From Mytilus trossulus (lineage: Eukaryota): a stretch of 64,000 bases of DNA. Below, one piece after another: positions 118-45,632 of the stretch. A program made the position numbers and the translations under genes. Under the pieces are notes generated by a model. The model was not told where the DNA came from. It did not search any database and saw nothing but the letters and a program-made list of their open reading frames with translations. Each line of letters begins with the position of its first letter. The stretch's first letter is position 1. The stretch is from contig NC_086377.1 of assembly GCF_036588685.1 (NCBI RefSeq), positions 15,128,001-15,192,000 of the forward strand, written 5' to 3'.

Positions 118-354
118 GTAGTGTGATTTGTGTGGAGCGAAACCAGAGTTGTGATCATATTTACATAAGGACCATAAAAGGGGACTATACAAACAAGGTC
201 TATTTACTTTAGGCCTAAGTCTATTTACATAGTAGTTCTTATCAACTCTTAAGTAAACAAAGTTTGTTTACATAGACTAAAAATAAACAAATCACCCAAG
301 TTACGTAATGTACAAACTGATCCAAAATGAGTAAAAAAAAGGGGGAGATTGATA

Positions 355-2793: not shown

Positions 2794-3586
2794 TTTACTC
2801 TATTATGTTTTATCATAAAATGATAATTTTTGCTATATGATATTTTAAACTCATAAAAATATTTTATCATTTATTACTTAGAAGAGACACATGAGACAGG
2901 CAACTTTATTAGTGTCATTTTTATTATCCTTTTGAAACTTCTTGAATTTTATATAACACATGTTAAAGGGTAACTCCACAAGATCCAGAAGTTGATTTGT
3001 CACATCTATTACATATTTAATTATCTCTTCAAGTAAATACTGTCTACCTTGATAATGTCATATACAAACACAGATAATTTAAAGTGTGACATGGTATGAT
3101 AATATAATAATTATCTTGTTAAAGAAGCCTATTGATTGTTTACTGTACAGTTAAAAACTTATCTATTTATTGAACTTACTCAGGTAATTATCGGCAATGG
3201 ACATTTGAGCGCATTGACAGGACATTTGAGCGAAAAAAAAGGACGTTTGAGCGCCAAAGTATAGGACATTTGAGCGCCTAAATTTTAGGACATTTGAGCG
3301 AAAATAAGAATAAGCGTAGGACATTTGAGCGAAAACAAGTCTTGGATAGAGAATTGTCTTATTGGCAATCATACCACATTTTCTTACGAATATAGTTCAT
3401 TAAATGAGGAGTTTACCAACAAAAAGATTAAAACATATTTTAATTGTAAAAAACAAAGCACTAAAAACAAAGCACAGTCATAAAACAGGAGTTTACCAAC
3501 AAAAAGATTAAAACATCTTTTAATTGTAAACAAAGCACTAAAAACAAAGCACTGTCATAAAACATAAAACTCGGCAACGGCATTAT

Positions 3587-4146
3587 TTACAAGTCTGTTC
3601 GGGCTTGGAACTTATATCCCAGGCTTCTGACATAAAAATCCCTCGTAATTTCCTGCTGGCAGTATTTCGAATGCAAATCCCGGAGATTCTGTTCCTTCTC
3701 CTTTTCTGTTCGGCTCTGCGGTGCATCAATGTTCAAAATCCGAATTTTTATGTTAGTCACAGATTGCAATTTGATAATAGTGTCAAGGAAAGTATAAATT
3801 GATGGATGACTGTGATAGAACTGCTCGTTATAATGGGCATGAAATGATTCGGGCCCATTGTTAGTACGTTTTAACGAGGATGGAACTTCGGCCCAGAGAT
3901 GAGGGGGAAATAACGATTCATCTGTTATATAAGTATCAGTCAGGTAATCTGCAAATTCTATACAAGGCTTGTCGTTAGGTACAACGGCCATAAAATCTTC
4001 TACGAAACAGTCGGCTACTTCGTCTGGAGCTAAAAAGGCTATCCCAAAAATCCCTTTAAGCCATTTACTAATGTCTGAATCAAGCTCTTTGTATTGTTGA
4101 CTAAGTCCAACTTTCTGGATTTTTCGCCACCAGGCTTGGCCTAAGT
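3587..4146 (-). pseudogene. MULE transposase C-terminal part
   Basis: LGQAWWRKIQ..., PPHLW, RTNNGPESFH, HPSIYTFL motifs typical of MULE DDE transposases; truncated at about 4146. Confidence 0.85.
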
Positions 4147-4235
4147 AGTAGTAGATGTAGTATGAATCCTAAAAAGACAACTCCTCATCCAAGACACAAT
4201 ATAATTAAAACAAGCAATTATATATTGTATATATA

Positions 4236-4342
4236 CACTGTAAAAATTGTGTTTAGGGCCTAAACACTTTTCTATACACATTTCATGTTAGATCTAAACA
4301 TGTTTAGGAAATGTTTAGGCTCTAAGCACAATTTTTACAGTG
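4236..4342. mobile_element. 107-bp hairpin MITE nested in the MULE
   Basis: TIRs cactgtaaaaattgtg / cacaatttttacagtg flanked by TA. Confidence 0.7.
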
Positions 4343-4610
4343 TATTGTATGAATATTGTAAAGTGCCTAGAAAATCAACCTAACAATGTTATATAGGTTA
4401 CAGTACGACCTTCAACATGGAGCCTTGATACCTAACCCTATATGTGGTAGCTTATATTCAAATGTGTTAAAAAATTAATCTAAAGGAGGTATAAGATAGA
4501 CATATAATGATATAGATATAAATCAAAATTAAAAGAAGTTATGGAAGTTGAAGCGTAACAGACGAACAAGTAGTTTACATTAACATTAAATTTGTAAAAA
4601 AAGGTACTTA

Positions 4611-4725
4611 CTGTACATCTCCAGGATATTTCTTCTCCTTTTAGTGTTTTGTCCACTCTATATCGGAAACTGTCACAAACAAGGCTTCTTTTTCCCTTAT
4701 TAGTCTCGGTCAAAATAATATCCAT
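4611..4725 (-). pseudogene. FLYWCH zinc-finger first exon of the MULE transposase
   Basis: MDIILTETNKGKRSLVCDSFRYRVDKTLKGEEISWRCT followed by a gtaagt donor. Confidence 0.7.
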
Positions 4726-6459
4726 TTTAACACGTACATGTATTATTAGTATTAAGATTTCAAGGGACATTTCACTTAATAGATATATATATAAGAATTT
4801 TAGAACAAAGAAAATTTGCATAGCCAATGAATTATAGTAGAATTGATTGGTAAATAGAGATCAACTTTGGATTTCACTTACATAAACCAGCCAGAACCGG
4901 TCGAATTACTCGGGTGTGAAATAAAATAAAAAATATTTATAACTAAATCTTACTTTTTTTTCTTACTTTTAAAAAAAAATCTTAATTCGTGTAAAATTAT
5001 CAGGGAAAATTTCGCTCAAATGTCCTGTCTGAAAACTCAGGTAAGGTTAATATCCCGGCGCTCAAATGTCCTATGAAGTCGGCGCTCAAATGACCCTATG
5101 TGCTTTTTTCTTTTTCGCTCAAATGTCCTATGCCCGTAATTATTACCCCCCTACCTACTTCCAAAATGTTAATTAAGAACTATACTTATAAGTATCCCAT
5201 ATGTTAGAGGTTATAAATTACCCACCTGTTTAATTTTAAACAAGATAATCTATATTTAACCTTTATATTATTTTTTTTAAATTATGTTTAAATTAGATAA
5301 ATACTTTTAATATATTTTTTAATATAGAATTAAAATTTTAGTCTTCAACATTCCTTTTCATGTAAACTATAATGTTCTAATTAGTACATTGTTGAATGTA
5401 AATATGTTATATACTGATGTTAAATGGTATTAATTAGTTGTTGTCACTGTACAGTTTATTTAGTTCTCAGATAATATGATAGTTATTCTGACCTACCTAC
5501 AAAAACAATAGTCTCGACAAAGATTTTATTCAAATCTAAATAATAGACAAATAGTTTTATTAAATAATGTTTGCTATTCATTATTTGAGTTGATAAAAAA
5601 AAACACTGATGCAATACTTGTGATAATACCATTAGGTTGGAAACTTTTTATAGTACTTTTATTGTTAAACACTCATATCATATGTTGTATTTTTTTTTGT
5701 TGTTGCCATAAATGTTATTAAACTATTGATAGTGCTGCTTGTACAGATAATGAATGATATTGGACCATTCAAAAGTATTTATTTGATTTGCAAACATTTA
5801 TTTTAATTTTTTTAAAGAAATTAAATGAGAATGAACATGGTGAAAGGAGAATAAAAGTATTCCTTATGAATTGAATAACTTATTTTGAATGGTCTTGTGT
5901 AAATATGTTTTTTTAATATATTCAATCAAACTTATGTATTTCATGTGATATAATATATATCAACATACAATCAAACTTGAGTAAGTTTTAAACTTTTTTT
6001 AATCACAAGATCTTTTTTTTCCAAACACTTATTTTTGTATATTTTTACAACTTAAAAGAAGAATAACAATTGGTTTTCTTTATATCATCCATAGTTTAAG
6101 GTTTGATTACATAGTACATAATACTCAATTTGTTGATGCTCAAAAGATATCATATCTACCACATAGTTGTTCAAGAAAAAAATGTGTTCATATTATACTG
6201 TTTTTTTTATATTCTCTTTATTAAAATTGCTATTGCAATTTAGATCTTGTATCAAGCTAAACTGTTACTATATTTATTATACCATGTTGTTTTTTTTTAA
6301 TTTTATATCAGATAGAATAAAAAGTTTTTGAATTTGATTAGCCTTAATTTTTTTATACCAACAACAGACAAAATCACCCTGCCTACCTGTCTGTCTAGAG
6401 TTGAAGTTCACCACCTCAACATATACATAAAAAAAACAACAACAAAAAAACACACAAAA

Positions 6460-7779: not shown

Positions 7780-8207
7780 TATGAAGATTAGTTAGTTTCT
7801 ACATGTTCTCCGTACAGCTTTGCATATAATAAAATGCCACATATCTCTCTTAAAACACCCCCTGAAATCTCTTAAAACGAATACATCTAAATGTTGTAAG
7901 TATGATAAAATCTCCTGTTCACGTAAATACCCACAATATATAATATCCATGAAACATATAAAGAATTTATGTTGTCAAAATCGATGTTACGCTGATCAAT
8001 CAACTCTTCTCCAACATAAAAAATATCTAAATCGTAGAAGTTAGAACTTTTTATAAATTGTTCATAGCAAAAATCTACAAATTGTTTTAAAATTAAAGTT
8101 GGGAATGTTACTAAGAAGTCTCTAATGACTTCTGGGGATTGACATGTTCTACTTATCCGATAAAGTGTTTCCATGGACAATTGAAAAAGGGATTGTTGTG
8201 TTGTCAT
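7780..8207 (-). pseudogene. Orphan ORF, frameshifted near 7940; N-terminus resembles a BC/SOCS box
   Basis: MTTQQSLFQLSMETLYRIS...IRDFLVTFPTLILKQF; reading continues in another frame (YCGYLREQEILSYLQHLDVFVLRDF). Confidence 0.35.
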
Positions 8208-8447: not shown

Positions 8448-10286
8448 TCATTCGAAATCCGATTCGGAGGAGTCCGTTATTTCGATAACCTTCGGTCTCT
8501 TTGTGGTGAAGGTTTGCTTCTGAAATAAAAAAAAAGAAGAAATATTTTAGAAATTATAAAACTAAGAAGTTATCTCCATACATATGTAGGACTTTTAATT
8601 TATACTTGCTATTCTTACTTTTAAACCAATCAAATGGTAAATAAAAATAAAATCATGTTTGAAATTGGGTTTAAACAAGAGATGAATAGTATATTGTGAA
8701 TCAGTTTACAATCATGGATGATATAGAAAACAATCTAAACGATCTTGAAAGATCAGTGAATAGTAGAACTTTTCTTTTAGTGAAAATTATAGGTATATCT
8801 CTGATCCTATATTCCACTGGAGTTTCTATGGTAGCGGTTATAGAAATGGTTGGTGATCGTTCAAATTCAACATCAATATTTCAACAATTTCAGCTTAAAC
8901 GACCTAAACCGATCTTAGTTCCATGCATAGAAAAGTTAAAGTTTGCGATTGTGGGAGATGTATTTGTAAGAGTGTGTGCAAACATAAATGCGATAGTTGA
9001 CATTAGACAGTACAGAAACCAAACACCAACATCAACGGGGATATTTTTATCTACAACTCAGTATGAACATTTAAAAACAACTATCTTGCAAATAGACGAT
9101 TCTATAAAAAACATTACTAAAACAAAGTGAGAGAAAAAAATATCGAACTTGTGTATGTGTAATATGTAAACGTTTAACTAAAAAAAAACAAAAAAAAACA
9201 AACAAACATTGATAATAAAAAGTTATTCAAAATAGTGTTTCTTACCTCTTCTTCACTTCCTATAGTCTTGTGGCGACTTTCTATCGCTTCACTCAGAACA
9301 GATGGATTGTTCTTAACATTTGTCAGTTTCCGTTTTCGTTTGGTGATCTGAAGAAAATAATAAAAAAAAGTTACAGGAGAAATGTAATTCAAAGTTTTGC
9401 TTACATCAGTTTACAATATAAAACCAATTTTCTATTTAGGAAAAAAAAGTTATTAATTATCAATGAAATTCATATAAATAGATTTGTTATCCTCACCTTG
9501 TTGGTTGATTTCACGGGAGATGTAGCTACTTCCTGCTGTGGTGGTTTTTGTGTGGCGATCTACAATGGAAAAAAATATAACATAAATATCAAACATGACA
9601 TTGGAAACAATTTCAAAATATAGTTGAACAATTTAATGGATATGCATTAACTTTTTTTTGTAAACGTGAAAATTACACACATACACTTACATTTCTTAGT
9701 AAATGAAAATCTCTTTACTTTAAAAACTACATAATTCAAACAAAAAGATAGTATAGCATGTTATGAAAAAACAGAGATGGGTGATGTACAAAATAAAGAT
9801 AGTTAGATAAAAATAAACTTACATCGTAGTCTGCGCTTTTCTCTTCCTTTTTGGGATATAATCTTTTATTCTTAAAAGAAAAAAACATAAAATAAACAAC
9901 TACGCTTAAATCTTTGAATTTTTAAAAATTATTTGAATATTTTCAACAATACATACAACTTTCAAATGAAGACGAGTAAACCTTCTTTCTTGTTTTTATG
10001 AAAATCTCACTAAATGTTTTTATGAAAAGAAAAAGTCACAACTACATTTAGTAATTGAAATAAAAATTTAATCTACCTTATTTTGAATCACTTCCTTCGT
10101 ATCCGCAAAATTTCTTGTAAAGACTTCCATTAACTGCTCCATCTCATCTGCTCCTAATGAAATGGATTTTTGGTTTGGAATGTTCTCCAAGTGAACGTAA
10201 ACATACCCCTTCCACGAATTTATTGTAACTTTTTTGTTCCTACCAAATTTTAGTGTAGCCTTTGACTGGTCTTGGTTAAACTGCAT
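8448..10286 (-). CDS. Intact 5-exon PC4-like protein (164 aa); exons 10286-10077, 9870-9823, 9559-9497, 9347-9246, 8519-8448
   Basis: All four introns are GT-AG and phase 0, giving an open frame to TGA. Exon 1 FGRNKKVTINSWKGYVYVHL...SISLGADEMEQL fits the PC4 fold pattern. KRKRK NLS, acidic tail, upstream TATA at ~10366-10373. Confidence 0.75.
8714..9130 (+). CDS. Membrane-anchored PC4-domain protein nested in intron 4 of the antisense PC4-like gene
   Basis: Hydrophobic segment FLLVKIIGISLILYSTGVSMVAVI, then the PC4 signature VDIRQY...PT..GIFL...QYEHL. Confidence 0.7.
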   Translation: MDDIENNLNDLERSVNSRTFLLVKIIGISLILYSTGVSMVAVIEMVGDRSNSTSIFQQFQLKRPKPILVPCIEKLKFAIVGDVFVRVCANINAIVDIRQYRNQTPTSTGIFLSTTQYEHLKTTILQIDDSIKNITKTK

Positions 10287-10654
10287 GATGATTTGTTTTT
10301 CTTTTACGGTAATGGTTATTGGTAAAAAATCTGGAAGCAAGGTAGAGTTGAAGATATTTCGTTAGTTTATATAGGAAATGAGGTGTTATAATGTTTACTA
10401 GCAATTGGAAGATGGACGCGTATGTTAACACAACACACCAATACAATTGTTTTAAGGTGTGGCCAAGATAAAATTCGACATAAGCCACACCAATTTGATT
10501 TACAATTAACTTGAAATTGGAGATAAGATCATCAATTTATTAATTTATTTTAAAGACAAATTCGTGATAAAAAAAAAGAAGAACAAAAAAAACGATTTCG
10601 TATTATCATACTATAGTGTAATACAAATGTATTGTATTCGAGAAAAATGGAATT

Positions 10655-11134
10655 TGTTGAGACACTCGACGCAGCAGTAGCGATAGCTGTTGTGGCAGTT
10701 GCGGTTGTAGTTAAACTTGGATATAACGCAGCAAAATTTTGTGGCGTCTGTAACCGGGAATTTCCTGCAACAGATATCAGTGTTATAGAAAGCGTGGAAG
10801 GAATTATTGGCCGGTGTACGATAGATGGTCGTACTGGCGTGATACTTGATGGAAGAGTTGGCGGTCCTGTCCACGACGAAACGAAAGGATTAGATTTTAT
10901 AGGCGAAGACTGAGAAAAAGGCTGGTCGTCTCCGTAAGGGATTGTGGTATCGTTGTCACACTCGGCAACTTGGTGTTTAATTGGATAGCTCTTCTTGAAA
11001 CTAATAATATCGTCCTGCTGGTCTGCAAATATACCAAGGCCTTCAAATGCAGAGTCTAGTTTGTAATGAACCTGCTGTTTATAGTTATCAGGGGTCTTTC
11101 CAGGTTTCGCGGTTTTCTTTTCGTTGCTAAACAT
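10655..11134 (-). pseudogene. N-terminal half of a ~286-aa P/S/T-rich orphan protein (C-terminal half at 12547-13068)
   Basis: ORF 10550-11134 shares TLSIT...SSVST with ORF 12547-13107; 141-bp nucleotide duplication 10655-10795 = 12928-13068. Confidence 0.65.
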
Positions 11135-12546: not shown

Positions 12547-13068
12547 TTAACGCAAATAGTTTCTGACTTGTCTCTGATAGGATTTTTGCAATCTTTCAAA
12601 ATAATCGATATATAAACTAATAAAAGGGGGTAAATCATTATGTGGAATTTCTATTTCTGGATTGTTAAGAAGAGTATATAAACAGGATGACTGTAGAGTT
12701 AAATAAGAAAAGGGGTCATACACGTAGGAAACTGTATAATTAATCGCATCTAAATAATCTATGTCATCATGATTGTTTATCAATTTGTTCCATACTTGAT
12801 GTGGCGAAAGTTTAAATAGATCCATATCTGGTAACTCTGAAGAATTTGTTGATGGTAATGTTGTTTGTCCTGTTGTTGCTCCTGGTCCTGTTCCTGACGT
12901 TGTTGTTGTTGTAACTGATTGTGTGGATGTTGAGACACTCGACGCAGCAGTAGCGATATCTGTTGTGGCAGTTGCGGTTGTAGTTAAACTTGGATATAAC
13001 GCAGCAAAATGTTGTGGCGTCTGTAACCGGGAATTTCCTGCAACAGATATCAGTGTTATAGAAAGCGT
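12547..13068 (-). pseudogene. C-terminal half of the same orphan protein (T-rich linker plus helical domain)
   Basis: Open frame to a natural stop; the 5' side is cut at the junction with polB (13068/13069). Confidence 0.65.
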
Positions 13069-16000
13069 TTTTCTGGTGGTTTGGTAAATGTTAAAAATGA
13101 GGATCACAAATGTTTCTTGTGGAGCATATTAGCAGGTCTACATCCAGCTCAACGAAACCCTAATCAAGTTTTACATTATAGAAAATATGAACACTCTATG
13201 GATTTAACCGGAATCGACTTCCCCGTTTCATTGTCTAAAGTTGAAAAATTTGAAAAACAAAATGACTTATCCATCAACGTGTTCGGGTGTGAAGATGGGG
13301 TTGTATTTCCACTATACCTTTCAAAAATGGACAATGGATATAAAGAAATTATTTTATTGTACTTATCAAAGGAAAATAATTCTCATTATTGTTGGATCAA
13401 GAATTTCAGTCGTTTCCTTGGACACACACGAAAGCATCACGGTCAACTTCACTATTGCCATCGATGTTTGCATGGGTTTATTAGAAAAGATTTGCTAGAT
13501 AAACACCGACCATACTGTGACAAATTCGATTTTCAAAAAATTGAATTACCAGAAGAAGGGAAAAATATTCTTGAGTTCAAGGATTTCCATAAAAGTATGC
13601 ATGTTGGATTCACGATTTATGCTGATTTTGAGGCACTGACTCGGAAAATGGATTCATGTTTACCAGATCCGAATATATCATCTACAACACATTGCACGAA
13701 ATTTGAAGCTTGCGGTTATGCTTATCAAGTCGTATGTACCAACAGTAACTACACCAAACCCCCAGTTGTTTACAGAGGTAAAAATGCTGTCGAACGTTTT
13801 TTTGGAGACATGTTTAAAGAAGAAGAGTACGTTAATGGTATTTATGGTGACATTGAACCTTTGATCATGACCGATGAAACAGAAAAAAAAATCAAAAGTG
13901 CAACTCATTGTAATATTTGCAGCGGCAAGTTTTCTGATGGTCTCATCAAAGTCAGGGATCATTCTCACATTGGTGTGACTGGGGATCGATATTCTGATAA
14001 CTATAGTAATTACAGATCAGCAACTTGTCAGGCCTGTAATCTGAATTTGCAAAATCCATCATTCATCCCCATATTTTTTCACAACTTTCGCGGATTTGAT
14101 TCCCATTTACTGATAGAAGCTGCCGGAAAATACAAGGACAAGAAGATCGTGTGTATTCCAAATAATATGGAAAAGTATATTTCCTTCTCTGTTGGAAATT
14201 TAAGGTTCTTGGATTCGTACCAGTTCATGTCGGAAAGTCGGAGAGGCTGGTAAAAAATTTAGCTGTAGACGGTCTGACTCATTTTCACCACTTTAGAAAA
14301 GCTTTTCAATCCGATGAAATAGCCAAATTGCTACTACGTAAAAATGTCTATTGTTATGACTATGTAGATAGCCATGATAAATTCGAGGAGACTATGTTAC
14401 CCCCTAAAACAGCTTTCTACAACACCATAAAAAGAGAGCATTTTTCTAATGATGACTATGATCACGCACAACGTGTCTGGGCTGCTATGGACATGAAAAC
14501 ACTTGGTGATTATCACGACCTTTATATATTAACTGACGTTTTATTGCTGGCAGATGTGTTTGAAAGATTCAGGACAATGACAATAGAATACTATGGACTT
14601 AATGCCTGTTATTTTTACACAGCCCCTGTACTTGCTTGGCAAGCTGCCTTAAAAATGAGTGGTGTCAGTTTAGAATTGTTAACATCTCCAGACATGTATA
14701 ACTTTTATGAACTCGGTTGTCGAGGTGGATTAAGTATGATTAGTCAAAAGTATGCTAGGGCTAACAATAAATATGTTAAAGGTTATGACTCTACTAAACC
14801 TAGCTCATATCTGATGTATTACGATGCCAATAATTTATATGGTTGGGCTATGTCACAACCTCTCCCAACTGGAATGATGCGATGGTTAGATGCGGGTGAA
14901 ATACAAGAATTCAACTTGTTAAAAAAAACAATTGATGGTCCAAAGGGCTACATGCTTGAAGTCGACCTGGAATACCCAAATGAAGTACATGAAAATCACA
15001 ATTCCTACCCCTTAGCCCCCTCACACAAGCACGTGGTGGACGAAGAGCTTTCACCATACAGTAAATCGTTGAATGAAGATTTATATGGTGAACACCGGAA
15101 AAGACCTAAAACGATCAAACTGATACCAACGTTGGAAAACAAATGTAACTACATTACCCACTACAGAAATCTACAGTTATATATCAAATTAGGAATGAAA
15201 ATCAAGAAGATCCATAGGATCATAGAATTTGATCAATCTCCCTGGCTAGCTAAATACATATCCTTTAATACGAAGAAACGTCAAAAATCGAAAAATTGCT
15301 TCGAAATTATTATTTTTAAATTAATGTGTAATTCCGTCTTCGGAAAAAACATGGAAAACCTAAGAAACAGAGTTGATATCAAACTCGTCAATAGCGAGCG
15401 TAGTTTAAGAAAATATACTAGCAAGCCGTCGTTTGAGCGGTTTCAAATCTTCAATGAAGATTTGGTTGGAATTCAAAACAAGAAGACGAATTTATTACTC
15501 AATAAACCCGTCTACGTGGGAGCGAGCATATTGGAACTTTCTAAAATCGTTATGTATGATTTTCACTACAACGTAATGAAGTCAAGATATGGGAAAAATA
15601 TCAACCTTCTCTTCTCCGATACAGATTCTCTGATGTATGAAATTTCCACTGAAGATATTTATCAGGATATGATGACGTTTAAAGATTATTTTGATACTTC
15701 GGCATATGATGTAGAGAACAAACTCCATTCAACAGTTAATAAAAAAGTTGTTGGGAAAATGAAAGATGAATTATCTGGTAAGTGTTTTATTCAAATAGGC
15801 ATACCCGCATATTTAATTTCAAACAATAAATATAAAAGTCAAGTGAAAGTAAATTATCTGTACTTGTTCATACTTTAATTGTTTTCATACTTTAAATGTC
15901 AAATATGTTGGGTTTTTTTTTTTTTTACATTATAATTACTATTTGATTTTATCCTTTTCAAGAGTCCCTATTACGGAATTTGTAGGGTTGCGTCCAAAGA

Positions 16001-16314
16001 TGTATTCCATAATCTACGATGTTGATGGAACACAGAATGAAAAACGAACAGCTAAGGGAATAGCCAAGTGTGCCGTAGACCAACAAATTAGACATGAACA
16101 TTATAAACAGTGTTTGTTTCAAAACAGAATGACTTTAAATGATATGAACTTGATTCGTAGTGATAATCACATTCTATATGTGAATCACATTAGAAAAACT
16201 GGACTGTGTAACTCTGATGATAAGCGGTTTTGGAAAAATTCCATACACAGTTATGCGTTTGGACATTATACAATTCCAATTGTAAATAAAAGTTGTAATG
16301 TATATTGTAAATGA
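13069..16314 (+). pseudogene. polB: Polinton/adintovirus-type protein-primed family B DNA polymerase (endonuclease-VII/HNH-containing lineage), 5'-truncated, 1 frameshift, 1 intron
   Basis: vOTU-like KCFLWS...SHYCWI; ExoI YADFE; Endo-VII CNIC...RDHSH...CQACN; ExoII HNFRGFD; ExoIII YILTDV; Pol A DANNLY, B KLMCNSVFGK, C DTDS; then LRPKMYS and KGI. Frameshift at ~14239, intron 15778-15961. Confidence 0.93.
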
Positions 16315-16430: not shown

Positions 16431-17017
16431 TCACTGTAGTTGGCTTAAATACTCCATTGGGTTATAATTCTCCTCTCCCGGGATTTTAGGTTTTTTGTTT
16501 ATCATATCACCTTCTTTACTGTCCATGGATCTCTTATTAGAATGGTTAAGCACTCTTAAATGTTGCGCTGTGTAGGGTGGTGGTGGAGGCGTGGCTTGAG
16601 ATGTCAACGGAAGCAACCCTTTTGCAGTTTGTGGTGAATGGTGTTGTGGAGGATGCTGCATAGGTTGTTCTTTTTCCTTAAAAGAAATGAAATTAAATTA
16701 GTCACTTTTGAAAAAGTTGATATGTTTAGATTGTATTTTTATTGGAGTTCGACTGAATTAAAGATGGATAAAAATGAAAAACTTACCTCTAATTCATTAA
16801 ACAGTTGCTCCAACGCTTCTTTCATGTTAACTAGTTCACAGAATTCATCATAACCAAGAGAGCATCTTCCCGGGTTTCTAGGATTGTTGTTGTATAAGTT
16901 TATATAAAAATAGTCATTCACTTTTGTTAATACTATAGCCATATTCCTCCCGAAATTGGTACGCATCTCCAAATTTCCCTTTATACTATTTTTCTTTGCA
17001 AAAGCGTAACTTTCCAT
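16431..17017 (-). CDS. Intact 2-exon divergent PC4-like protein (158 aa); exons 17017-16787, 16676-16431
   Basis: Phase-0 GT-AG intron. FGRN...YFYINLY...CSLGYDEF aligns with the 10286 gene. Pro-rich tail with PPPPY and KKPK; TATA at ~17084-17092. Confidence 0.7.
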
Positions 17018-18282
17018 TATGTTTATTCTAAAATTAGCAGTATATGAAGAATAAAAATATGTAGTTTTGAGTTAGGTGTTGGGTTTATATATAGTATTAC
17101 AAAAAATATTTGGGAGGGTGGGGTGGGTATTTAAGCTACGTCCCTCTTCATTTGCCCAATTGAATTGATGAATGCATATTTGAATACATGTAGATCTATT
17201 CCTATGGGAGTACAGTTCTCTTCAGGGTTTTCTGACTCGATGTTCTCACGGTCTAGAAAATGGTGATACATTTAATGTCAGAATTAATTTTTAATACTCT
17301 AGCTTATTAACTAATTAAAACAAAATGGAAGATCTGAACATGGGAAAAGGATAACCCTAGAAAGGCTTTTCTAATTTATTATAAATCATCATCATGTACG
17401 GAATAATTTACAGTTTAAAGTTAACCATCATATGATTTATCAAAACAGGCGCTTAACTGTTTGAGTTTCTTTGGTGGGTCAGGTAATTATATATATATGC
17501 ATATCTAACTTGAAATTATGTGGTATGGATATTTTATTAAAATATACTGACGGATTTTGTAATGTATTTTATGGTAAAAATTTCCATTCTTAATTTTGAA
17601 CTCGGACTTCTCTTGAACTGTATTTTAATTGTATGCATTTTGCACCCGTCCTAAGTCGGGAACCTCTAGCCTTTTTTTTTTTTTTGTCTTGTATGTAGGG
17701 TTGATGTCTCTTTGACACATTCCCCGTTTCCATTCTTTATTCTATTAATCCCTCATTTACTGGATAACACAATGTCAATTTGCGCAGAAATAGAAAATCA
17801 TACTCAAAACATATGAAAAGATTAAAAATTATCAAAATCGCACTATGTTGATATAAACGAACAGAAAAACCACGTGGGATAACAGAACATTTAACAAAAA
17901 CTACCTTAGCCATTGAAAGTCATTTATTGTTTTATAAATTTCATCATAGGATATAGTCATATATCACGAGTTGTCTCTCTCTAAACACAAACGATTGACT
18001 AACACAACAAATAACATAGTGTGACAAACAAACTCATTCCATATAATGAACAGATAAAAAAAACCTGTCATTTTATGCAACAACCAAACTCTTTTGTGTT
18101 CAACGAAATATAGAGGGGTGGGGGGCTAAATAATCCTGTTCATTGAGTTGTGGCTAATCTTACATGGTAGACAACTCTATAGTTAAAATACCATTCGGAA
18201 CCTAGATTTTAATAGATTCATCAAAGCCCCTAGAGAGGTCAAGATTTCCCGCGGATTTTAACCATATGACAATGTCTGAAAA

Positions 18283-23280: not shown

Positions 23281-23609
23281 TAGATATGTAGTTGTTTTTA
23301 CTGTTCTTAGCAATTCATTCAATTTGTACTGCAGTCATATATCAAAGTTATTTTCCTCTGCTTTTTCATATCTGAAAGTGTGCATTTGATCTGAAGTAAA
23401 AAGTCTAAAATGTTTTTATGTTTTTGTAACAGTATTGACACTTATTAACCAAGCCTTCAAAATACCTCAATTTTACATACAGGTACTTTTTATTACACTG
23501 TTCTGATTCTGTTTTTTTGTTGAATGATAATAAAATTTGTTAACTAAATAATGTCTTTGTTTTGTTGTATAGGTTATTATTTTCAAAGTTCAAACTATTT
23601 GCAGGCGTG

Positions 23610-25455
23610 TGAAATTCACAGCTTTACTTTCATCATCGCTAAGAAAAAAGAAAATCCGCATATCATTAAGACTAAAGCGTTAGAGTACATCGACAATGCA
23701 TATAAAAATCATTTAAAAATTTACACCGATGGCTCAAAAGACCCAGCTTCGGGTAAAACTGGATATGCTTTTTTAATCCCATCAAAGTTGACTGCAAGCT
23801 ATAAACGAACGTCAGACAATCTTTCAGTTTACACCACAGAAATGACGGCCATATATCAATCATTAAAGTGGGTATTCTCCAATCAACAGCCAGGGCAAAA
23901 AGTTGTTATTCTAACTGATTCATATAGTGCAATCCAATCTATAAATAATAATGCATCAAGTAGACCCGATATCCTAGAACCAATTCAAATACTGGCTTGT
24001 CGTCTAAAACAAAAAAAAATATAGAAGTAACCATAGAATGGATACCAGCGCATGTTGGTATCCTAGGTAATGAACAGGTTGACAAACTAGCTAAATTAGC
24101 ACTAAGTAATGATAAGATTGGCCTTAACTTGAGTCTTAGTGCAAACGAACTCATTGCAATAACAACAGCATTATATATTAACACATGCTCCCTATGGAGT
24201 CGTTCTATACATACTGCAGTAAATAAAAAAACCAACTTTTATCAAGGTAATCGATTTCATGCAAAAACAATAACTAGACTTAGGTTGGGCACTACTTTAT
24301 TACCTGGGCAACTAGGCCAGTACATACGCAATGTCTCTCCATTATGCAATACATGCGACATTTAAGATGATATAGAACACGTACTAGTAAACTGTATTAA
24401 TCATTCACAAGCGAGACAAAATTTGCAATCAAACTTGGACAAGGTTCAAATACAAAATATTAATACCAAAATTTTACTAGATCCTCCTAAAGACAAACAA
24501 AGACAAGACAAATGTCTGGTCGTGCTTGGTACAATATTTAACAGAAATTGATTATCGTAAATTTATATAAGTATATATATATAAAAAACAGTCATAGAAA
24601 TAAAATAATTAAAATACACTGCTAGAGTTATCCGGGTCAGTGACTCAGAAATGGAGTCAGGCCGTAACCGGCAGTCAAAAACTAAATCTTCACTTCCAAT
24701 ACAGTACGTACTAAAGAAAAGATCGTTAAGAAGACCAGCTACGCTGCAAGAGTTATCCGGGGTCAGTGACTCAGAAATGGAGTCAGGCCGTAACCGGCAG
24801 TAAAAATCAAATCTTCAATACAAATACAGTACGTACTTACTAGAAAAGATCGTTAAGAAGACCAACTACTCTGCAAGAGTTATCCGGGGTCAGTGACTCA
24901 GAAATGGAGTCAGGCCATAACCGGCAGTACAGATGGATCTTCAAGACGACTTACCACAGCATCATTAAAGGGGCAAAACATACTGCAAGAGTTATCCGGT
25001 CAGTGACTCAGAAATGGAGTCGGGCCATAACCGGCAGTAAAAATTAAATCTTAGACAAATTAAATCCAAATTAAATATGATAAAAAATAAAAAAAAAATT
25101 AATCCTTTGAAATAACTTAACATATTTAAAATTAGATAAAATGAATGGGGATTAGTTAATTAAACTATTAGAATTATGCTAACTAAACAAGAACGCACGA
25201 TAACCTTTGTTTTTTTTTCCAAATTCGCGGCAACCCAAATTATTTTTGTTTCTACTTTTGGTCATTATATAAATTTTTCATGTCATTAAGCCGCAAGTCA
25301 AATCTAAGACTTAAAAAAATGGTACGTCGCAAGATCTGGTTTGCGCTTATCTAGTTTTAATTAGCGTGGGGCACTGTCTTCCTGCGGATAAGTGTTCCAG
25401 TGTACTAGCACTCTAAAGTCCTGCAACTACGGTAGGCTAGCACAAAGCAGTCAAA
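23610..25455 (+). mobile_element. 5'-truncated RNase H-containing non-LTR retrotransposon (I/Nimb-like) with long 3' UTR
   Basis: YTDGSK, EMTAI, TDS, WIPAHVGILGNEQVDKLAK (RNase H); RLRLG and C-x2-C...H-x4-C knuckle; frameshift at ~24015 and stops. Confidence 0.85.
24615..25040 (+). repeat. Four tandem copies (~115-135 bp period) of a conserved GC-rich hairpin
   Basis: ctgc..ccgg ggtc tgactc-agaaatg-gagtca ggcc..ccgg cag nested stems conserved in all four copies while the spacers diverge. Confidence 0.8.
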
Positions 25456-30160: not shown

Positions 30161-31536
30161 GTCAATACAATGACACGAAGGTATCCTTTCATACCTGACA
30201 TAGTCAACAATTTCGATACCTACGAAGAGTTAATTCAATGGACTCTAGAAAACCAAATGTTAGACCACCCTTTAGTAAAGCAACGCATAAATACTGTAAA
30301 CTATATTAATCAATTTGAAAATGCAGAGGATCTAACCGAATGGGCAATACACCATAGCCTACTGAACGATCGACAGGTTCTAAACAAAATTCAGACTTTG
30401 TATACATGTAAATGGTGTAAAAGGAGATCGGAAAGTACACGTGAATTAAGACTCCACGAACAGGTTCATTTGATGTGTGATGACATACTACAAACTGGAG
30501 TATCATCGGACAACATTACACACACTGATAACCACATTTTGACCAATAATACTTCCGACATTTCTGTTTCTACATATTCACAGAAGGGTGCAGGGGTTAC
30601 ATCAGAACCTCCCTATATTTTTCGTCAATCTGGACAAAAAACGTTTTCTAAAAATTTGGCGACAGGAACAACGTATAAAGTCAAATTACAGACGTGTGGA
30701 AAGGAAAAAAATTGCGCGACATCTTTAAAGATATACAACAAATGTTCGAGGACGTTCTGGTCAAAGCAAAGGGAGGTGAACAGGACCTAGGGCGTGTCAT
30801 TGTCCGTCATACAGATTTGAATCACCCCATCGTCGTACCCCTGGACAAATGGTCTAACATAAATGCAAACACGGTCATGACTGCCGTAGAAAATGTATTG
30901 AACAGCGACGAGACTCTGAAACTGTCTGATCAAACAGAGATTCTTGTCGGCAATATTAGTATCCCTAAGGGGAGTGGCAGAGTACACGTCACACAACTAC
31001 AAGGGCCTCAGAGTTCCATTGCATTAAAACATCAATGTTAAGGGTTGCTAACAGCGATCACATGTGTCTAGCCACGGCCGTAGGAAGATGTTTTGTCAAA
31101 TTATGTAAGATTGTTACGCTGGAAGAATTTAAACGAATAACCGAAAACGACCCTCCTAATATGAGCGCGACAATGAAAATGGTAAAACACAGAGTGATTA
31201 CCAAAAGTTACCTTGCACACATAAAATCGCCTTCTAATAATAAGTACAGACAAATTATGTCAAAGGCACTGTGTCGCAACCAACCTGCCCACAGACAAAC
31301 CGTTGACCATCACGGACATCAAACCATTGGAGGATCTTCTAGACGTCAATATTTTAGTTTTATCGGCTCGATTGGGAAATAAATTTTGTCGAGTGGCAAA
31401 CGTGACAAACCGCAGTAACATCTATCTGTATCTGACAGAAAACGACGATGGTGTGGGACATGTTGATGGTATCGGAAACATCAATGGATTTTTCAATTAC
31501 GGATATTTTTGCGAAACGTGTTTAAAACGTGTTTAA
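30161..31536 (+). pseudogene. polB: N-terminal region (zinc finger, terminal-protein and vOTU-like regions) of a second-lineage Polinton pPolB; three frameshifts, 3'-truncated
   Basis: C2H2 finger CKWC...HEQVH; QKGAG and PKGSG protease-site-like motifs; VENVLNSDE; SDHMCLATAV (Cys) and GHVDGI (His); YFCETC; splice acceptor just upstream of the ATG. Confidence 0.75.
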
Positions 31537-36540: not shown

Positions 36541-36824
36541 TCTGTCTAACGTTAAACGAAGGGCGAAAATTGTTGTAACAATCCTAATTTTACACTACTA
36601 AACTTTAAATGTCTATACATAATCCATTCGAAATCAGATTCTGAGTTCCATTGAAGATTAAATAGATATATTTTTTTTTACTTTTTCATATTTTTTTTAA
36701 TGAAACTTGAATGGGACTTCTACGATAATGTTTAATAGGGAATAGCCTTTGCATATTAAAAGAATATACACTTCATGTTGCTTTAATGTGATAAACCATG
36801 TACTGCACTGAGCCGAACTTTTTC

Positions 36825-37050
36825 AGGAACAGTCGTTGTCCAAATTTCCCCCAGAAACTGTTGAGACACAGTTTGGCAAGACTACGTAAACCTGGATTTA
36901 CCTTGATGCTGTCGTAATCTAAGTTTTTGCCTTCATTTTCTGTATACAATCGAATGTATTCTCGTTTTTCTTCCTCCGTCCGACAGTGTTTGGGGAAACC
37001 ACTGGCTTCCTGTTTTATTTTAAGAAACAGCTGGACGTAGTCATTCATAT
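36825..37050 (-). pseudogene. polB: Internal fragment of second-lineage pPolB (motif B region)
   Basis: FLKIKQEASGFP...I..NPGLRSLAKLCLNSFWGKFGQR, the hallmark Polinton pPolB motif B. Confidence 0.9.
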
Positions 37051-37540
37051 ATCCGTTGACATCAACAGGACTTGGCGGCGGTTGTCTGAAACCATTCAGG
37101 CTAGGGTGTATACAAGATGCTGATTGTTTATAAGCAACTGCTTGAGGCTGAAGAAGTGCTGGTGGAAAAGCGTAGGCAAATGCACTTGAAGGCTGATAAG
37201 TTGTCGCCTTACTGGATGCTTCCTGCTGCTGAATCCTATGTGAAGACTCCTAATTAAAAAAACACATATAAAAGCGAAAGGTTCTGTACAGATTAAAAAG
37301 GGTCGTAAAATTTCAATTGAACGGAGAAAAGTTTAGAAGTTAAACAAATCAATAACTTACCTCGCATGGGCTGCTTTTTCTGCCGGGAAGACACTGCTCA
37401 GGGAATCAAGATCTCTTCGGATTGATAAAATGAAATCTAGTTCACCAAGTCCTAGACATATCCCATTAAAACGGGCCTTCCCGAACTTATTATCGTATAG
37501 ATCTAAATAGTAAAACTGTTCATGTTTCCTATAAACTAAG
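37051..37540 (-). pseudogene. 5'-truncated 2-exon PC4-like gene (exons ~37540-37361, 37250-37051) fused to the pPolB fragment
   Basis: LVYRKHEQFYYLDLYDNKFGKARFNGICLGLGELDFIL aligns with the 17017 gene; gtaag donor, tag acceptor, Q/P-rich exon 2. Confidence 0.6.
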
Positions 37541-37783: not shown

Positions 37784-39065
37784 GTTTACTATGTTTTGAT
37801 TTAATATGATATTTGATAAAAATTATATTTTTGTTATATATATATTTTAAAAAACTATTAAAAAAGATGTTGCCATTTATTACTTAAAATAGACATGGGA
37901 GACAGGCAGCTATATTTGTCATTTTTATTATCCTTTTAAAGCTTCTTGAATTTTTTTTAATTATGTCAAAGGCTACTCCACAACAAACAGAAGTTGGATT
38001 ACCATTCCTATTACACATTTAATTATCTCTTCAGGAAAATACTGTTTACCTTGATTATGTCATATACATAGACTGGTTATATGAAGTGTGACATGACATG
38101 TTAATATAATAATTATCTTGTTAAAGAAGTCTATTAATTATTTATTGAACTAAATCTTATATTAGGAGGGAATTATTACCCCCACCTGCTTCCAAAATTT
38201 TATTAAGAGCTATACCAAATAACTTTATTTTGTAGAAATTATTCTCTATGGCTTATATGTATTCAGACCACAACGTAAATAATGTTCAAAGATGTTACGA
38301 ACTTATGTTTCCGAATATTACCATATATTCATAAGAAACTAAACAAATCTGATATATTTTAACATGTTATTATAACAATGATATACAAGTCTCTAGCTAA
38401 TCCATTTATACAAGTCTCTAGCTAATCCATCGGATGTTTTTATTTTATGTGTTGTTCACTATGGGCGTAGTGGCTTCAATATTTAGCGTCTCTGCATCGT
38501 CCAGTGTACATGAAGATAGTCTTAAAAAAAGGAATACATTTTGTAAATTTATTCCGTATATTTCATAATATAACTGGCAAATCCTCTAGCTTAGATCAGA
38601 TTAAAAAACAAAGGATGAGACCCGTAAGTTTTTACACAGTGAGTATAAAGAATACATCTAAAAATTATCTCTCTCGTGTGTTGTTCACACACAGAAATGC
38701 AAAATTGTTTTTGAGTAAATATATATATATAAGTACGTTTGAACAAGAGACAACTCAACGATAAATTGATTCATTGAATGACCAGTGAAAATAGAAAATT
38801 CTATCAAAAACAGTACTAAAACAAAGTGAGTATACCACTATGTATGAATGTGATAAATGATTACATATAATTATACAATAAAAGGATACAAGAAAATAAA
38901 AAAATATTTTTCTTAAATGATAGGAAGAATTTTTCTTCAAATTGTCAACAGGCAATTTCAAACTAAACGTGTCATTGACATGCTTTGACTTATTTTTGTT
39001 ACACTTAACAAGGTACTTGTTATAAGAACCACAGATATAATTATATTCCAAATTTACAATAAAAT

Positions 39066-43760: not shown

Positions 43761-44003
43761 ATGGCCAATCAGTGTATGATTCTGTTCTTAATTCTCATTA
43801 TATTAGACAGGGGTGTGGCAATTGAGCTATAATTTTTTTAGTTGACAATGATTGGCATGTAGGAATGCAGCTTTTACTTGGCAAGTGATGAAATTCACAA
43901 GTAATCAGACAATGATTAATGTGGACCCTGCTATAATTATTTGTCTAAACTTGAGAAGGAAAAAGTCAAGACTCTTACTAGATGTAAATTAAAAATAACA
44001 TAC

Positions 44004-45632
44004 CTTTGTCCATAAGATATAAAAACTTTCCAACTTTTGTAATTTCTTGAACAGCCAATGGACATTGGTAAACATGTTTATTGATTTCTTCTGAATGGCA
44101 CATGTGCCTATAAAAAGCCTGCCTGTCTGTCTCTGGTACATCCAAGTTTGCAAACACAGTTGACATGTAATGTCTCATTTGGGTGGCGTTAATCTCTTTT
44201 GTAAGCCCTGCCTGCTTACATACTTTGTTTACACTATTCCATCCATTGACATGAAAGTCTGAGCCTTTGATGTGTGGAAATACATATATATTACTAGGGT
44301 TTACACCTGCCATCTCTCTCATCTGTGGATCAGTAAGGTTTTTTTTATAGCTTTCCAAGAATCTTTGGGAATGAGCATTGGGAGCATATGGCACACACTG
44401 TTGCCAGACTGATATGACAATTTATATATTTCAAATAATTCAAGCTCCTCTGATGTTTTGGCTTTTTTCTTGTGGGTTTCAGATAATCAGACACCATCTT
44501 TTGCAGCATCCCATTCCTTTCTAGTAAGTCTACTTGGTTCTCCTCCCCGCTTGGCATTGAACAGTTTAATTCTGGCTACCACAAGATCTCTTAGCCGGGG
44601 ATATTCATTCATATCTAAAATCTTGTACGGGTCATCCATCTGTGCAATTCCAGTCAGAGTGTAATTCCGCAATCTTCTTACATCATCATCAAGAGGTAAA
44701 TAGTGTGGTCGTCTAAGGTTTTCCTGTCTATTCTTAATACAATTGTATTCAGCTCCATCGAATATCTCCTTTCTGTAGTAATCAAATAATGTTTTGAATT
44801 CCTCAATTTTTACCAGCTCATCTTTCTTACCCTGCAATAAATGCTGCCCTTTTATGTGGCTAATAACATTTTTCAAAAGATGACCTACATTTTTTTTTAA
44901 TCCAGATTTCATACCTCCATCTTCTTTTGTAGCCATCACATGGATAGCATCCATAAAAGTTGTAAAGTGTTCCATTTTAAACATGTCTAATGTTGCATTT
45001 ATGTCTTTGCCAATTTTAGCTGCCTCGCTTTTAAAACAAAAGAAAAGATTTGCTATCATCCTCATGTGCTTCATTATATTTTTTCTGTTCTGTGGGTTTT
45101 TGTCCTTCCTTGCTGCAAATCTTCTGTAATTGTGAAATCCAAAGTCTTTTAGGTATTTATCAGTTTTACAAAACTTTCCACTTGTATCATCCAAAAAGCC
45201 ACTTAAGATGTCTGCCTTATATTCTTCAGAGTAACCATCATCTCTAACAGCAGAAAGTGGAATTGCAGTCGGTGTAATTGTTGTTCCCTCTGCTGCTGTA
45301 CATTTGATTTGGTGAATCTTAAAGTGTTCTTTTACAAAATACCCCTGACATGAGGAACACATAGCCCTATTTTCCATCACATTTCCTTCCCTCTGTTTTC
45401 TTGCCTGCCTTTCCTTAACTATTTGATTCACATCAAAGTCCTCCTCTTTCATTAGCATCAAGTTGTACAGGTGATAGCCTCTCCTTTTCAAATTGCATAA
45501 AACCTGATTTCTGTCTTTTACTGGAAGCTGCTTTTACCTCATCGTTGTCTTTATGTTTAGTTAGAATATGCCTGCTTAATCGACTTTGAAATATACCACA
45601 AAAAGGACATGGTCTTTTTGGCTTTCTTGTTC
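44004..45632 (-). pseudogene. Tyrosine recombinase-like protein with N-terminal zinc fingers; disrupted exon
   Basis: CPFC...RHILTKH, CSSC...HQIKC; catalytic R in LFNAKRGGE, TQMRH, M(C)HS, HVYQ. Stop at 44487, frameshifts and an internal deletion; bounded by AG/GT splice sites. Confidence 0.75.

Follow-up and report, generated by a model that had tools for sequence, protein, structure and literature searches.

A five-exon gene in the mussel Mytilus trossulus carries a second gene, on the opposite strand, inside its last intron. This arrangement raises the question of what kind of element holds the two genes, whether their nesting is accidental, and whether both encode PC4-like proteins. A preliminary description of this DNA had attributed it to a compact nuclear virus genome with two nested genes of the same PC4 fold family. 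Here, the locus was analysed in a window of 64,000 nucleotides (contig NC_086377.1, positions 15,128,001 to 15,192,000), the features of which are listed in Table 1.

Table 1. Features of the nested locus and of the element around it, numbered from the first letter of the window.
Feature	Position	Strand	Details
Exon 1	10077..10286	-	start codon and divergent PC4-like domain, 70 aa
Exon 2	9823..9870	-	48 nt, phase 0-0
Exon 3	9497..9559	-	63 nt, phase 0-0
Exon 4	9246..9347	-	102 nt, phase 0-0; basic KRKRK run
Last intron	8520..9245	-	726 nt, spans antisense gene; joint 8519/9246, CT..AC
Exon 5	8448..8519	-	acidic, serine-rich tail and stop
Nested single-exon gene	8714..9130	+	138 aa, wholly inside last intron
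Nested protein (predicted)			hydrophobic helix at residues ~25-43, stalk, Cys71 and Cys88, PC4 fold 73-137, sequons 51, 102, 133
Gene X, third module gene	7887..8207	-	downstream of spliced gene in all three families
Polinton-type terminus	118..330	+	starts AGTAGT; 99% identical copies at two other places
B-family polymerase remnant (Polinton)	13087..16314	+	three pieces, without N-terminal part
Diverged remnant of exon 5's 3' end	36603..36645	-	41/48 columns identical
Diverged remnant of nested gene's 3' end	38786..38830	+	40/45 columns identical

Structure and splicing of the five-exon gene

All four introns of the gene have GT-AG ends on the minus strand, a pyrimidine tract ahead of the AG and phase 0, and the conceptual product of the five exons is an uninterrupted protein of 164 aa. 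An identical protein is listed by NCBI as "uncharacterized" LOC134718567 [Mytilus trossulus]; the gene is indeed absent from a plain list of open reading frames, as the preliminary description had remarked, yet it was already annotated. To the splice signals and the gene model, contigs of sequencing runs can be added. Contigs of 4 of the 24 listed sequencing runs (unstranded, and all four only guessed to be RNA) were compared with the locus. The results showed that a 768-nt contig of run X6 omits exactly 8520-9245, 9348-9496, 9560-9822 and 9871-10076, each gap with CT..AC ends, and joins all four junctions to the base; no such spliced joint was present in the other three of these runs, whose contigs cross the exon-intron borders. 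These data, from one run in four, show that the gene is spliced at all four junctions, and the proposal that genes of a virus-like element use the host spliceosome is supported. The last intron does wholly contain the opposite-strand open reading frame. This nested frame is covered by low-depth, unstranded contigs in three of the four runs, which could derive from pre-mRNA or DNA, and one covering contig has a 1-nt insertion at 9105.

The basic run and the acidic end that had been described for the protein were located in exons 4 and 5, respectively, and the basic run likely acts as a nuclear localisation signal. A diverged second copy of the 3' end of the last exon was also confirmed, and the nested gene has a similar remnant (Table 1). 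Two M. edulis models show 88% identity to the spliced protein over its first, PC4-like domain, and the M. edulis models P0002 and P0003 lack exon 2. With all exons in phase 0, the tail of the spliced protein could gain or lose exons.

Whether the spliced protein is itself a PC4 was examined by several comparisons. The Pfam PC4 profile (PF02229) scored 20.5 bits (E 3.4e-4) against the whole protein and 20.4 bits (E 3.5e-4) against exon 1, both below the cut-off of 25 bits, and it matched only 2 of 30 relatives of exon 1. HHalign aligned the closest relatives of exon 1 to soluble PC4 domains with a probability of 59% (E 9e-5), forward sequences scoring above reversed ones, and to the nested family with a probability of 4%. 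The predicted structure of exon 1, of low confidence (pLDDT 70), gave no significant PC4 match. The spliced protein is thus probably a PC4, its fold being weakly supported. Compared with two decayed copies, exon 1 differs by 7/2/25 and 8/3/20 substitutions at the three codon positions, a third-position bias that shows purifying selection.

A nested PC4 homologue with membrane features

For the nested gene, there is good support for a PC4 fold. PF02229 scored 16.5 bits against it (E 5.9e-3), below the gathering score of 25 bits; a profile of the nested family matched human PC4 at E 1e-9, and 53 of the 107 family members matched PF02229 at E <= 0.01. The predicted fold, four strands plus a helix, superimposes on human PC4 with an rmsd of 1.4 over 60 residues at 32% identity. 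Sequence homology and fold together show that the nested gene encodes a PC4 homologue with an N-terminal hydrophobic helix. Of the proposed common fold family, the nested member is well supported and the spliced one weakly.

The nested gene is not simply a second, antisense PC4 gene, though. The hydrophobic helix was found in 103 of the 126 family matches of 105-200 aa, and both cysteines are kept in 99 of 104 rows, counts inflated by a search profile that already held helix and cysteines and by the relatedness of the rows. Sequons C-terminal of the helix number 225 against 104 +/- 9 in shuffles, whereas those N-terminal of it number 18 against an expected 27 +/- 5; soluble PC4 proteins, used as a control, have 21 against 30 +/- 5. 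Lysines and arginines amount to 243 before the helix and 91 after it. By these sequence statistics, the protein looks like a type II membrane glycoprotein, with an N-proximal helix, a positive-inside N-terminus, sequons on the C-terminal side and a cysteine pair.

A membrane-bound PC4 could also face the nucleoplasm or cytosol, where it would bind nucleic acid and tie DNA of the element to the nuclear envelope or to a compartment for replication. The close match of the predicted fold to human PC4 speaks for such a tether, as does the conservation of the position equivalent to R86 (94 of 107 rows) and, in most rows, of the aromatic residue after it. We nevertheless regard it as very unlikely, since the positive-inside bias places the N-terminus in the cytosol, the twofold sequon enrichment is confined to the C-terminal side, and the cysteine pair is near invariant. 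Loss of DNA binding by the nested protein is itself not clear-cut, because the R86 position is kept and the mean net charge differs little (0.7 vs 1.2). The positions of R70, R75, R86 and R100 are, we assume, sites on the DNA-binding surface of PC4. Those of R70, R75, W89 and R100 are mostly changed in the nested family: that of R75 is a cysteine in 107 of 107 rows and that of W89 mostly aliphatic, while that of F77 is a tyrosine in 40 of 107. Roles of F77 and W89 in PC4 are dealt with in a passage of PMC7145681. Against decayed copies, the nested gene shows 4/3/10 substitutions by codon position, a weak bias that is weakly suggestive of purifying selection.

A decayed Polinton copy and its young relatives

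The window lies in a 1.3-Gb mussel genome, is rich in host repeats and carries internal duplications. Its Polinton-type terminus has a 99% identical copy on contig C14 that adjoins integrase, capsid-like and protease genes, and its polymerase remnant shows 36-45% identity to residues 275-1260 of a family B polymerase. A search reaching from 20 kb ahead of the window to 70 kb beyond it yielded no match to an ATPase, capsid-like, protease or integrase gene. Whereas a complete element has both termini and the structural module, the window copy has one terminus, at 118, and a broken polymerase, which lies on the other side compared with two young families. These results indicate that the element is an endogenous, rearranged Polinton/Maverick remnant without the structural module, and not, as first suggested, a compact nuclear virus genome. 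Dense packing, introns and several PC4-like genes would suit a nuclear virus outside the Polintons, but every homologous module examined in a longer context lies between Polinton termini with Polinton core genes, and the window itself combines a Polinton terminus and polymerase remnant with abundant host repeats. That reading is largely refuted, and we give it hardly any credence.

Several further pieces were observed in the window. The first gene after the terminus (635-about 2200, plus strand) is multi-exon by splice signals, is homologous to the first gene of an 18.3-kb Polinton family and has type I membrane protein marks (signal peptide, Cys-rich domain, Thr/Ser stalk and a late hydrophobic exon); open reading frames at 18266 and 53529 resemble it by eye. 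A FLYWCH-bearing insertion at 3192-5135 is absent from two sister copies. Ser/Thr/Pro-rich, mucin-like coding pieces at 10550-11134 and 12547-13068 (minus strand) share a 141-nt duplication that is 99% identical (10655-10795 and 12928-13068), and probably belong to a single gene that rearrangement has divided. At 16739-17017 (minus strand) lies another PC4-like exon, the third and a distant relative; a contig of run X7 lacks 110 nt at 16675/16786, the gap having CT..AC ends, so this exon is probably spliced too. It has many relatives among Mytilus models and unnamed metagenome proteins. Fragments of a second type of Polinton polymerase occur at 30170-31524 and 36773-37054 (Pfam DNA_pol_B_2, E 5e-5), an RNase H fragment at 23551-24024 and a tyrosine-recombinase-like remnant at 43978-45458. 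The decayed close copies of the subfamily to which the locus belongs cluster on one contig, G000:C5, at about 9.3-15.2 Mb and 34.6 Mb, among them tandem arrays whose 186-bp unit includes a piece of gene X, and this region is possibly transposon-trap or piRNA-cluster-like.

Homologues of all three module genes were found in a young 18.3-kb family with nine copies, 97-99.9% identical, on several contigs. Its ends are AGTAGT with inverted repeats of about 150 nt, and two of its copies have different 6-bp target duplications. A 15-kb family with the same core has 496-nt terminal repeats and 6-bp duplications. The AGT-repeat ends, inverted repeats at the termini and duplicated 6-bp target sites are those of Polintons, and so is the set of core genes: an rve integrase (E 3e-10) and an adenovirus-type protease (Peptidase_C5, E 2e-5), both above the Pfam cut-off, with an A32-type packaging ATPase (Pox_A32, E 2e-4) just below it. 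In a 1267-aa polymerase-like open reading frame of the 18.3-kb family, Pfam and PHROGs matched only an endonuclease VII part, and we recognise what we take to be B-family polymerase motifs. Candidate capsid frames of 440 aa and 135 aa at the expected positions had no informative match in Pfam, PDB sequences or PHROGs.

Both families carry the PC4-like gene, the antisense homologue of the nested gene and the gene X homologue near the left end, in the same order as the window; their introns are drawn from splice signals and gene models rather than reads. The PC4-like gene of the 15-kb family comprises six exons, each a multiple of three in length, and five phase-0 introns, the last of which spans the antisense gene with its donor 8 nt from that gene's stop. 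Two of the exons are tandem duplicates, the last exon is acidic like that of the window, and the NCBI M. edulis model P0194 joins at the place of the last intron. The counterpart gene in the 18.3-kb family ends 11 nt ahead of a GTAAGT donor; the antisense gene lies between this donor and an acceptor, and with an ATG 22 nt upstream as the start, the intron over it keeps the frame of gene X. A quick tree built from 111 rows places the three nested genes together in a clade of 20 rows, apart from the non-nested ones (SH-aLRT 88, a support under 95, with the nested row on a long branch). Two further Polinton families have the same membrane gene among their core genes and on the same strand as these; no spliced PC4 neighbour was seen beside it there.

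The nesting could have arisen by chance during local rearrangement of a decayed copy, given the internal duplications and the displaced polymerase of the window. This is highly improbable, as two other families, with nested proteins of only about 26% identity, show the same order with an intron across the antisense gene, and in a decayed close copy the last exon is still followed by the nested gene. The nesting therefore does not look accidental, and from these comparisons it appears to be conserved among mussel Polinton families.

It may also be asked whether the mussel has domesticated the module at this locus. Its three open reading frames have stayed open beside a broken polymerase, the close copies found are decayed, one module gene is spliced, and the M. 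edulis models are similar in the PC4 domain. On the other side, among the variants in the contigs are several amino-acid changes and, in the nested frame, a frameshift; gene X shows no codon-position bias against decayed copies (10/11/14), and the bias in exon 1 could stem from the active life of the element; that only 16 runs are listed as holding the locus weighs weakly in the same direction. We thus consider it quite unlikely that these are now host genes. Gene X has homologues at L039:7563-7994 and L145:1760-2137; its start presumably resembles the BC/SOCS box of Elongin-Cullin adaptors, for which a Pfam search of gene X gave no support.

Proposed function and comparison with known systems

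Taken together, we hold with good confidence that mussel Polintons/Mavericks share a conserved accessory module, of which the locus is a decayed, rearranged copy. Expression of both genes would depend on the RNA polymerase II and the spliceosome of the host, and splicing would remove the stretch complementary to the antisense gene; therefore the two mature mRNAs could not pair, and genes might be packed without cytoplasmic double-stranded RNA. The spliced product, with its divergent PC4 domain, basic signal and acidic tail, may be a nuclear PC4-like cofactor for transcription or replication of the element. The nested product would be a type II membrane glycoprotein with its PC4 fold, closed by a predicted Cys71-Cys88 disulfide, toward the lumen or outside. 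We lean slightly toward use of the fold as a dimer that serves as a scaffold for protein binding, either on the surface of the host cell or within the secretory pathway; binding of extracellular nucleic acid seems rather unlikely by comparison. More tentatively, with somewhat more doubt than belief, mussel polintoviruses might combine a spliced, adenovirus-like accessory transcription unit with a captured PC4 domain turned into a disulfide-closed glycoprotein on the virion or cell surface. If so, a surface PC4 could serve entry, superinfection exclusion or as an immune decoy, possibly with extracellular DNA binding, and would be the first extracellular PC4/Whirly-type fold that we have found described, in a family of hundreds of sequence clusters. 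Polintoviruses also go under the label "Beta adintovirus".

Polinton accessory genes are barely characterised, and Polinton virions have not been observed according to a passage of PMC10748475. The families described here share with Mavericks, as defined in the relevant part of PMC8097293, the AGT-repeat ends, 6-bp target duplications, terminal inverted repeats, length of 15-18 kb, probable B-family polymerase, ATPase, protease, integrase and accessory region. In intact vertebrate elements, the same part reports no introns in genes, whereas the accessory region of the mussel elements includes genes of several exons and a gene nested in antisense. Intron-bearing cargo is already known from Mavericks: those of nematodes, in the portion of 10.1101/2022.07.12.499685 consulted, likewise have an intron-containing cargo region close to the left terminus and have captured a membrane protein, MFUS-1. 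There, however, the cargo consists of proteases and kinases, MFUS-1 is a gB-like fusogen of 866 aa, and that portion mentions neither a PC4 fold nor nesting. The spliced gene by itself is thus annotated and ordinary for a Maverick accessory region, and the part worth following is the conserved nested membrane PC4 glycoprotein. PC4 genes, nesting or a membrane PC4 in Mavericks were not found in open-licence literature text, and 'PC4' was not found in the main text of PMC8502044 or in PMC11071296. A conserved, widespread membrane glycoprotein would offer a concrete way into the action of Polintons on the surface of host cells.

PC4 as known so far is a soluble nuclear protein. The nested protein shares the four strands and helix of PC4/Sub1 (PF02229) but differs in that its PC4 domain follows a membrane helix and in the replacements at R75 and W89; an extracellular PC4 fold would broaden the known uses of a DNA-binding fold. 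The words 'membrane', 'disulfide', 'extracellular' and 'secreted' were not found in the PC4 review PMC7549692. Bivalves have expanded PC4 genes, many per genome, which have been linked to stress adaptation (PMC9223095), and the string 'transpos' was not found in that paper. The M. trossulus genome agrees in number, with 57 PC4 matches; the N-termini of some loci (L072-L101) are, we presume, death-fold-like. It differs in context: among the top 30 loci, 27 have a match to a PC4 protein carried by a Polinton, and 10 lie within 1.5 kb of Polinton core genes. These data suggest that intron-containing Polinton genes, such as LOC134718567, are being annotated as host genes, and that a large part of the PC4 expansion reported for bivalves consists of cargo of mobile elements.
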